Origin: Escherichia coli
Lineage (GTDB): Bacteria; Pseudomonadota; Gammaproteobacteria; Enterobacterales; Enterobacteriaceae
Direction: 5' to 3' (one strand)
Assembly (NCBI RefSeq): GCF_048403405.1
Contig: NZ_CP183129.1
Length of the DNA: 64,000 bases
Shown here one piece after another: positions 59,664-60,314 of this stretch (position 1 is the first letter of the stretch; the number at the start of each line of letters is the position of its first letter). The notes beneath the pieces were generated by a model. The model made no database searches and was not told where the DNA came from. It saw only the letters and a list, made by a program, of their open reading frames with translations. The position numbers were made by a program, and so were the translations under genes.

Positions 59664-60314
59664 TTAGTCGAGATCGTGGACAGCTAATAAAGCCCGTGAG
59701 ATTTTTTCTAGGAATGTGGCTTTTGCTATTCCTTTATGGGATATCCCTTCATCCTTGATTAAGGTTTCTATGTCACGGTATATAGCTGTGCGATTAGGTT
59801 TCCCATTTTGGATGTAGGAAGATGAGCCTGATTTTTTTATCAGCAGATGTACTATCAACCCCATCATTTTCATTGTCCCGTTTTCCTCATCCTGCTTTCT
59901 ATGCTGCCCACGTCCGCTGCGGTTGGTTTCTTTGATGTAGTTTACTAACTGGAGTCCTCCAAGGTTTCGGGCTTTTTCTTCCCAGCCCTTGGTGCCACGC
60001 AAATCATCAATCGCTTCTGATATTTTCTGAACAATTATTTCTGGTGTATTTGTGTCAATAAATGGGTAAGAAGCTAAGAAAATATCAAGGGCATGGCAAG
60101 GCTCGTCTTTACTAGTTTTTTCACCTCTGTACACCTTGATAGCTCTGGCAAGATGAGTTCTGACAAAATCGACATATTCGAAATTTTCCTCAGGCACATC
60201 GCTAATGCGCATAGATGGGTTTAGGCCAGCCAAGGCCACAGCCATTTCATGAGGGGTAATCGATACAGATGAACAAAGCCGTTCGATTGGCGATTTTCTC
60301 AAGATGTTGTTCAC
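59664..60314 (-). CDS. Hypothetical protein (216 aa), AT-rich, translationally coupled to the integrase
   Basis: GTG start overlaps the integrase stop (GTGA); no recognisable motifs; markedly lower GC than the integrase. Confidence 0.6.
   Translation of the reverse strand: MNNILRKSPIERLCSSVSITPHEMAVALAGLNPSMRISDVPEENFEYVDFVRTHLARAIKVYRGEKTSKDEPCHALDIFLASYPFIDTNTPEIIVQKISEAIDDLRGTKGWEEKARNLGGLQLVNYIKETNRSGRGQHRKQDEENGTMKMMGLIVHLLIKKSGSSSYIQNGKPNRTAIYRDIETLIKDEGISHKGIAKATFLEKISRALLAVHDLD

Follow-up and report, generated by a model that had tools for sequence, protein, structure and literature searches.

The 216-aa gene directly behind the integrase gene of a phage-satellite island in Escherichia coli is inherited and swapped as one block with the repeats that precede alpA, and it is more likely an island control element than a stand-alone anti-phage gene. 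The reading favoured here, and held tentatively, is that its product is an allele-specific DNA-binding regulator of alpA. All positions refer to the window, the entire 64-kb stretch of DNA that was analysed. The host element, an island of 19 kb, matches the EcCIMP1 type of phage-inducible chromosomal island (PICI); EcCIMP1 is mobilised by the podovirus vB_EcoP_Kapi1, with alpA as its master regulator (PMC11773190).

Induction of Gram-negative PICIs depends on alpA, their master activator (PMC6092414; PMC11773190), and the factor controlling alpA has been stated to be unknown (PMC6092414). An alpA-lux fusion with 449 bp of upstream DNA shows helper-dependent induction (PMC11773190). The 216-aa family and its repeat array are a concrete candidate for this missing layer of alpA control: a family without a known fold relative, coupled to the integrase and shipped with a structured array upstream of alpA, for which natural pairs of islands with and without the cassette exist. 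If the gene is a defence gene instead, it would represent a new single-gene system, unusual in always occupying the same location.

The 216-aa gene and its junction with the integrase gene

The gene occupies positions 59664..60314 on the minus strand, starts with GTG and is annotated in RefSeq (WP_001059729.1; PHROG 30524 family). On its 5' side, the gene for the P4-type tyrosine integrase (int; 60311..61579, minus) encodes 422 aa from the RefSeq start; a longer open reading frame (ORF) reaches 61663, and homologues of the integrase carry the Pfam domains Arm-DNA-bind_3, Phage_int_M and Phage_integrase. In minus-strand reading, the junction of the two genes is CGGAGGCAAATGTGAAC. They share a 4-nt GTGA overlap (ATGTGA), in which the last int codon, ATG, occupies 60316-60314, the int stop codon TGA 60313-60311, and the GTG of the 216-aa ORF 60314-60312, just as the sequence-only reading of this DNA had described. 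A GGAGG that reads as the Shine-Dalgarno sequence of the 216-aa ORF lies at 60320..60324 (minus), within the 3' end of int and 5 nt before the GTG. The terminator scan returned no terminator-like site between int and the 216-aa ORF, and the two genes probably form one transcript, judging from the sequence. The GC content of the ORF is 42.5%, compared with 49.3% for int (the lower value for the ORF had also been remarked on earlier), 34% for the downstream non-coding stretch and 50.6% for the whole window.

On the opposite strand, a 44-aa ORF (59486-59619, plus) converges with the 216-aa gene and overlaps the iterons described below; it is probably spurious. A functional convergent ORF or a toxin-antitoxin pair was considered and rejected: the ORF is missing in the closest relatives, and Rfam gave no significant match.

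Protein family, selection and predicted structure

The 216-aa ORF is a real gene under purifying selection, as follows from its RefSeq annotation, homologues with identities down to 24%, a pN far below pS and a confident AlphaFold2 model. When the ORF is compared with three relatives, pN is 0.11-0.18 and pS is 0.77 and saturated, for a pN/pS of ~0.15-0.24. The sole family match of the protein is PHROG 30524 (“unknown function”; E 3e-34), and this match is full-length, with residues 11-209 aligned to profile positions 14-213 of 220. Among 1.84 billion representative proteins, 28 related clusters were found, whose full-length members are mostly 206-241 aa long; the family is small and confined to the Enterobacterales and Orbales. 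A literature search by accession numbers and PHROG identifier returned no mention of it. Used as a query for related loci, a narrowed family alignment retrieved 6 loci.

The earlier remark that the protein has no recognisable motif agrees with the database searches. Pfam gave only noise for the 216-aa protein and for 25 family members, NCBIfam matched 0 families, PADLOC-DB v2 matched 0 families at E up to 1, and PDB searches by sequence and by profile produced no usable match. No DNA-binding domain was detected by Pfam or fold searches, and neither a helicase, primase or Rep domain nor an enzymatic or toxin-like motif was found. The protein likewise has no HTH_17/Phage_AlpA domain of the excisionase type, alpA being a separate gene (58974-59192). 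Hints of a replication function stay at noise level (RepSA, E 0.08; “Replication protein B”, E 1.3).

The AlphaFold2 model is all-alpha, with a pLDDT of 89.7. The N-terminal 129 residues are acidic, and the most conserved part of the protein is a basic centre (SGRGxHRKxDE..GTxKMxGLL; pI ~10) that lies partly within a lower-confidence loop. To our eyes, the C-terminal motif KGxxKSTFxxK looks like the turn plus recognition helix found in small HTH domains, a weak hint of DNA binding. A HEPN-like R-x5-H reading of the conserved motif was rejected: the spacing is unconserved, and His138 is Tyr in several members.

The 90%-identity cluster that holds the 216-aa protein has 2,974 members, of which all others listed are integrases. 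Overlapping genes seem to have produced a clustering artefact here, which accounts for the exact protein being missing among the first homology matches. Proteins fusing Int and the ORF, as a Rosetta-stone clue, were rejected, since the cluster representative is a plain integrase.

Fixed position behind the integrase and allelic pattern

A P4-type integrase gene immediately precedes the family member in 18 of 18 independent contexts, which come from Escherichia, Serratia, Klebsiella, Erwinia, Pantoea, Chimaeribacter, metagenomes and the induced capsid-forming PICI vB_KppS-Ant. The tight coupling to int is conserved as well: in 16 of these contexts the gene overlaps int by 4 or 1 nt or follows it after a gap of ≤11 nt. 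The integrases concerned are 24-89% identical to that of the window, and the elements are of PICI-like, P4-like and capsid-forming PICI types; among them are the yicC island of E. coli O157:H7 and a capsid-forming satellite that is induced and packaged. The most distant relative (P0045, E 7e-4), too, is placed between int and an HTH_17 gene.

Behind integrases that are 85-89% identical, the ORF alleles are 81, 69, 35, 33 and 33% identical. The divergence of the ORF is uncoupled from that of Int (e.g., Int 88% and ORF 35% in one case, Int 24% and ORF 31% in another), which indicates deep allelic classes kept at one locus. Related alleles come with related iterons, both in group A (the window, L012, L013, and L019) and in group B (L014-L017). 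Such an allelic pattern is typical of specificity modules.

An exchangeable cassette between int and alpA

About 334 complete E. coli genomes carry this integrase, and the cassette of the window is present in only ~110 of them; another 91, O157:H7 among them (protein WP_000608238.1), have an allele ~70% identical in nucleotide sequence. Unrelated hypothetical genes of 293, 321 or 316 aa follow integrases that are 96-98% identical in nucleotide sequence. Homology of the 216-aa ORF to these 293-, 316- and 321-aa occupants was rejected (hhalign probability <1%), and the three have no match to a defence or PHROG family, save one weak PDC-S31 match. The sequence-only reading had supposed that the interval between int and alpA is variable and proposed comparing it across related islands, with conservation of the gene as a fixed core component counting against its proposal. 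The comparison upholds the variability, and unrelated occupants in near-identical islands mean that the gene is not part of a fixed core. As at a hotspot for cargo, conserved core genes bound the slot and unrelated genes fill it in sister elements.

The cassette spans ~1.1 kb (59229..60338, minus) and takes in ~25 bp from the int 3' end, the whole ORF and the non-coding stretch with its repeats. Homology is lost at 60338/60339, inside the 3' end of int, and regained at 59228, 36 bp upstream of alpA; between these points the cassette is replaced as one block between islands that are otherwise 96-98% identical. A natural swap is seen in NRZ14408, which combines an L002-type backbone, and an AlpA identical to that of L002, with the cassette of the window at 99.4% identity. 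The same AlpA (WP_001363069.1) is found in NRZ14408, with the cassette, and in FDAARGOS_1256, without it.

Architecture of the repeats upstream of alpA

In the window, alpA (58974..59192, minus) encodes a 72-aa protein of the Phage_AlpA/HTH_17 type and has an upstream region of ~470 bp with ordered repeats. This repeat architecture is real. At 14 of 16 loci a non-coding stretch of 305-653 bp that carries repeats follows the family gene, and at 14 of 16 the best self-repeat period is exactly 10 bp, above all shuffles. From the family gene towards alpA, the order is a hairpin, 10-bp-phased direct repeats, an AT-rich spacer, 3-5 TTTCAATRGAWT boxes and alpA itself. The unit of the direct repeats is locus-specific (GCCATxxTxA in the window; GGAGCCACCT, AAAGCACTAC, CTAAGGGTCT, CATTCAACAG and others elsewhere). 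The boxes are co-oriented and ~20 bp apart, and the last one lies 75-95 nt before the alpA start codon. Arrays are missing in the divergent members L022 and L082 and weak in L023. The stretch of vB_KppS-Ant (L018, 6993-7583) holds three successive 10-bp-phased arrays, made up of CATTCAACAG (four copies), CACGTAACGA-like units (six) and TGTTCATC (five).

The first element of the stretch in the window is a G+C-rich imperfect hairpin (59629..59653, minus), 10 nt past the ORF stop, which has no T-run and was missed by the terminator scan; comparable hairpins follow the ORF in other loci, with a canonical terminator in L016. A sigma-70-like site, TTTACC-16 nt-GATAAT (59593..59620, minus), a consensus match only, points towards alpA from upstream of the repeats. 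Two to three GTTC-type repeats in 10-bp phase (CTGTTCGGCT TAGTTCATCT GTAATCACCC; 59539..59571, minus) come next, and TGTTCA arrays resembling them occur in L012, L015, L017, and L018. The four tandem 10-bp iterons that follow (GCTATCATTA GCCATTTTAA GCCATCATGA GCCATTATAA; 59478..59520, minus) form the strongest 10-bp-periodic stretch of the 64-kb window, with 23 of 33 matches, compared with a shuffle maximum of 21 and 19 for the next best stretch. Beyond an AT-rich spacer (59325..59477; 25.5% GC) lie four co-oriented boxes, again ~20 bp apart (59256..59324, minus), whose motif TTTCAATRGAWT is conserved across loci. On the minus strand, these boxes are TTTCAGTGGATC (59324-59313), two copies of TTTCAATAGATT (59305-59294 and 59284-59273) and TCTTAATAGAAAT (59268-59256).

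After the last box, TAAACT forms a -10-like hexamer (59233..59238, minus) without a good -35, and the promoter scan found no consensus promoter at this site. A CACTAAACT-like sequence stands at the -10-like position in other loci too, and the hexamer is proposed as a putative, factor-dependent alpA promoter. Closer to the gene, a leader hairpin GTAAC...GTTAC (GTAACTTCATGAGCTATCAGAGAGGTTAC; 59200..59228, minus) pairs with the ribosome-binding region of alpA. This hairpin is kept in islands without the cassette and therefore lies outside the swapped segment; its conservation suggests that alpA may be under translational control.

Islands with other cargo (L002-L004) have only 105-114 bp before alpA and no repeats, and no repeat arrays were found upstream of the alpA of K-12 CP4-57. 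In a scan of viral contigs, the loci with both boxes and alpA also have the ORF (3/3), and the other 50 pattern matches, which have neither alpA nor int, look like chance.

Three other roles for the repeats were considered. The origin-type iterons of the island are TAACCCGCA, at 53640-53735 and 43230-43385, and the repeats upstream of alpA were consequently rejected as a replication origin for the window. The two origin-like regions lie ~10.4 kb apart, each consisting of inverted TAACCCGCA sets around an AT-rich core; one follows the primase gene on its 3' side, and the other is located at the distal island end, an arrangement reminiscent of P4 ori plus crr. vB_KppS-Ant has P4-type TGTTCACC origin iterons 3' of its primase gene, and its TGTTCATC sub-array resembles these iterons and may be linked to primase in that element. 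Arm sites for Int were rejected as well: the arm-type repeats of Int have the sequence GTGTACATA and lie close to both att ends; the att arms have GTGTACATA repeats only, and the ORF-linked repeats are ~2 kb from the att core. An autoregulatory function for AlpA is unlikely, since identical AlpA proteins occur with and without the repeats and the boxes are conserved beside AlpA proteins of very different sequence types and recognition helices; AlpA is thus unlikely to need the repeats.

A candidate regulator of alpA and rival readings

As a regulator of alpA, the 216-aa protein would act in trans as one half of a control module that phage-satellite islands exchange. Translated from the int mRNA by coupling, it would be present whenever Int is made, both while the island is integrated and when it enters a new cell; the transcript of int and the ORF would end at the hairpin just past the ORF. 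The protein would bind the allele-specific 10-bp iterons, the TTTCAATRGAWT boxes shared across the family, which adjoin the weak alpA promoter, or both, and its binding would set the level or threshold of alpA expression and, through it, excision and replication of the island. Such a module would be akin to an immunity repressor or a helper-responsive switch, and alleles this deeply diverged, every one paired with iterons of its own, would differ in specificity. We infer DNA binding by the protein, its choice of repeats and the sign of its effect on alpA.

The fixed position behind int and the gene's own repeat array argue for a regulatory or specificity module, and when the place in the int transcript, the deep alleles, the phased repeats and boxes and the block swap are taken together, a module of the specificity or immunity type is favoured. 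As with Stl- or CI-like regulators, repeated sites lie between the gene and the alpA promoter and are exchanged together with the gene. Three points count against regulation: no DNA-binding domain was detected, two or three divergent members (L022, L082 and, with weak arrays, L023) lack the arrays, and ORF and repeats may co-vary simply through linkage. A wider proposal is that the family and the iteron/box array form the switch that times alpA firing across a large share of Gram-negative phage satellites (PICI, cfPICI, and P4-like). The protein would then bind DNA through a new fold and be produced along with Int; its diverged alleles, with their matching 10-bp iterons, would define heteroimmune or helper-specific types, and the system would be the Gram-negative functional counterpart of SaPI Stl. 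This wider proposal is less probable than a regulator of alpA as such.

In a less probable account, the gene is cargo of an accessory hotspot: a single anti-phage, abortive-infection or host-benefit gene, expressed constitutively via the int transcript, with the repeats as linked regulatory DNA of alpA. The variable slot with unrelated single genes in near-identical islands and an ORF GC content below that of the flanks speak for it, quick and deep allelic divergence would also fit an arms race, and accessory and defence genes adjoin the integrase in P4-like satellites and PICIs (PMC9122126; PMC10085698; bioRxiv 10.64898/2026.02.27.708500). The related EcCIMP1, moreover, confers superinfection immunity without a known defence system (PMC11773190). 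One distant member, L022, sits beside Abi_alpha and Mrr genes and is the only context with defence neighbours. Known defence genes usually occur in many contexts; this family is not distributed over several kinds of defence islands and hotspots but is found only behind int, including cases in which the integrases have diverged too far for cassettes to be exchanged through their flanks. The cargo account also leaves the co-occurrence and joint swap of the ORF and the repeat arrays unexplained, and neither a PADLOC match nor an enzymatic or toxin-like motif comes to its aid, His138 being replaced in several members as noted above. The sequence-only reading had put the gene forward as an ordinary single-gene cargo and anti-phage candidate, a view that finds no support, given no defence match, an exclusively post-int position and a repeat array of the gene's own, which that reading had not noticed. 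An anti-phage role may still apply, perhaps as a second function, but is less probable than regulation of alpA.

The two remaining accounts rank below the regulator of alpA on account of the points that count against each. It is improbable that the protein is an accessory factor of the integrase, a cofactor for directionality, architecture or target choice kept at a fixed ratio to Int through translational coupling. Universal adjacency and frequent start/stop overlap across very diverged integrases would be expected of such a factor, but integrases 96-98% identical in nucleotide sequence exist without the ORF, the divergence of the two proteins is uncoupled, the ORF-linked repeats are distant from the att core and unlike the GTGTACATA arm sites, and the excisionase-type role is already filled by AlpA (PMC11773190). 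Still more improbable is an initiator with its origin or a maintenance module, in which the protein would bind the iterons by the AT-rich stretch for replication or segregation of the excised island. The iterons, the AT-rich stretch and the second repeat set 3' of the gene do mimic the rep-ori of SaPIs and Gram-negative PICIs (PMC6092414), and the noise-level matches to RepSA and “Replication protein B” point the same way. However, a typical origin with TAACCCGCA iterons already lies 3' of the primase gene, as does the TGTTCACC origin in vB_KppS-Ant, the protein has no helicase, primase or Rep domain, and the module is dispensable in sister islands.

Comparison with known systems

Like SaPI Stl, the 216-aa protein is a polymorphic satellite protein encoded next to int, and its candidate target DNA separates its gene from the one that opens the induction cascade. 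In Stl, the diversity of alleles is tied to helper specificity, and by analogy the same role is proposed for the alleles described here. Unlike Stl, which has a recognisable HTH, the protein shows no detected sequence or fold similarity to it, and its gene is missing from many sister islands. Stl is transcribed divergently from its operon, whereas the 216-aa gene runs in the same direction as alpA, with coupling to int on one side and a hairpin before alpA on the other. The lysogenic operons of P2 and 186, in which C or CI is co-transcribed with int, similarly place an integrase and, in the present case, a proposed immunity-type regulator on one transcript in the integrated state. Here, however, int comes first, and C and CI are small HTH repressors with defined operators and no homology to the 216-aa protein.

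Helically phased direct repeats upstream of a satellite switch promoter are also known from the Cox boxes of P2 on P4 P_LL and from excisionase filaments on 10-11-bp tandem sites, and by this likeness a helper protein is an alternative candidate for binding the iterons. The cox-box consensus, TTAAAGNCA, is missing here, and each locus has arrays of its own, tied to a satellite gene rather than to the helper. The hotspots of P4-like elements and PICIs (Rousset 2022, PMC9122126; de Sousa 2023, PMC10085698) share the integrase-proximal slot, conserved flanks and unrelated fillers; unlike their contents, the 216-aa family is found in no other slot, matches no defence model and has its own array of cis-elements. 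In PIME1 integrative mobilizable elements, which are also of the int-alpA kind, an extra regulator gene stands beside alpA, but it encodes a LuxR-type regulator of a different protein family, lies in divergent orientation and belongs to elements with conjugative helpers (bioRxiv 10.64898/2026.01.12.698999). In its geometry, AT-rich DNA with an iteron set on either side, the non-coding stretch is like the rep-ori of PICIs and SaPIs (PMC6092414); the stretch here follows int, not pri-rep, and TAACCCGCA origin-type iterons lie elsewhere.

Insertion site, excised forms and late end of the island

The island ends at positions 42757 and 61777-61785, and the usual yicC site is not used. Instead, the insertion lies between cvrA and dadX, within the 3' end of a leucine-rich-repeat (T3SS-effector-like) gene that it shortens from 478 to 448 aa; the empty site is seen in L021 (4555-4557). 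This secondary attB, AACATTCTGAACATG, resembles the yicC core, AATATTCTGAATCTG. The island junction of the window occurs in 0 of 5,426 complete E. coli genomes, which suggests a recent move mediated by Int.

Separate small records with an identical ORF exist for related islands beside a chromosomal copy (L081, NZ_LT599831.1, 19,226 bp; NZ_CP148430.1, 12,152 bp), and one of the two, labelled phage_14408_2, has a joined attP (...CAGATTCAGAATATCGAATAA...) between GTGTACATA repeats. The NRZ14408 island is also deposited as a separate 19.2-kb record. Such small records suggest excised or packaged forms abundant enough to assemble.

At the late end of the island (44091-51523, minus) there are four large genes encoding products of 186, 850, 565, and 873 aa, the last with an SLT transglycosylase domain. 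A sister island annotates their counterparts as DNA ejection or injection proteins, and the late-end genes suggest that the helper is P22-like and that the satellite encodes ejection proteins, a point also discussed for EcCIMP1 (PMC11773190).
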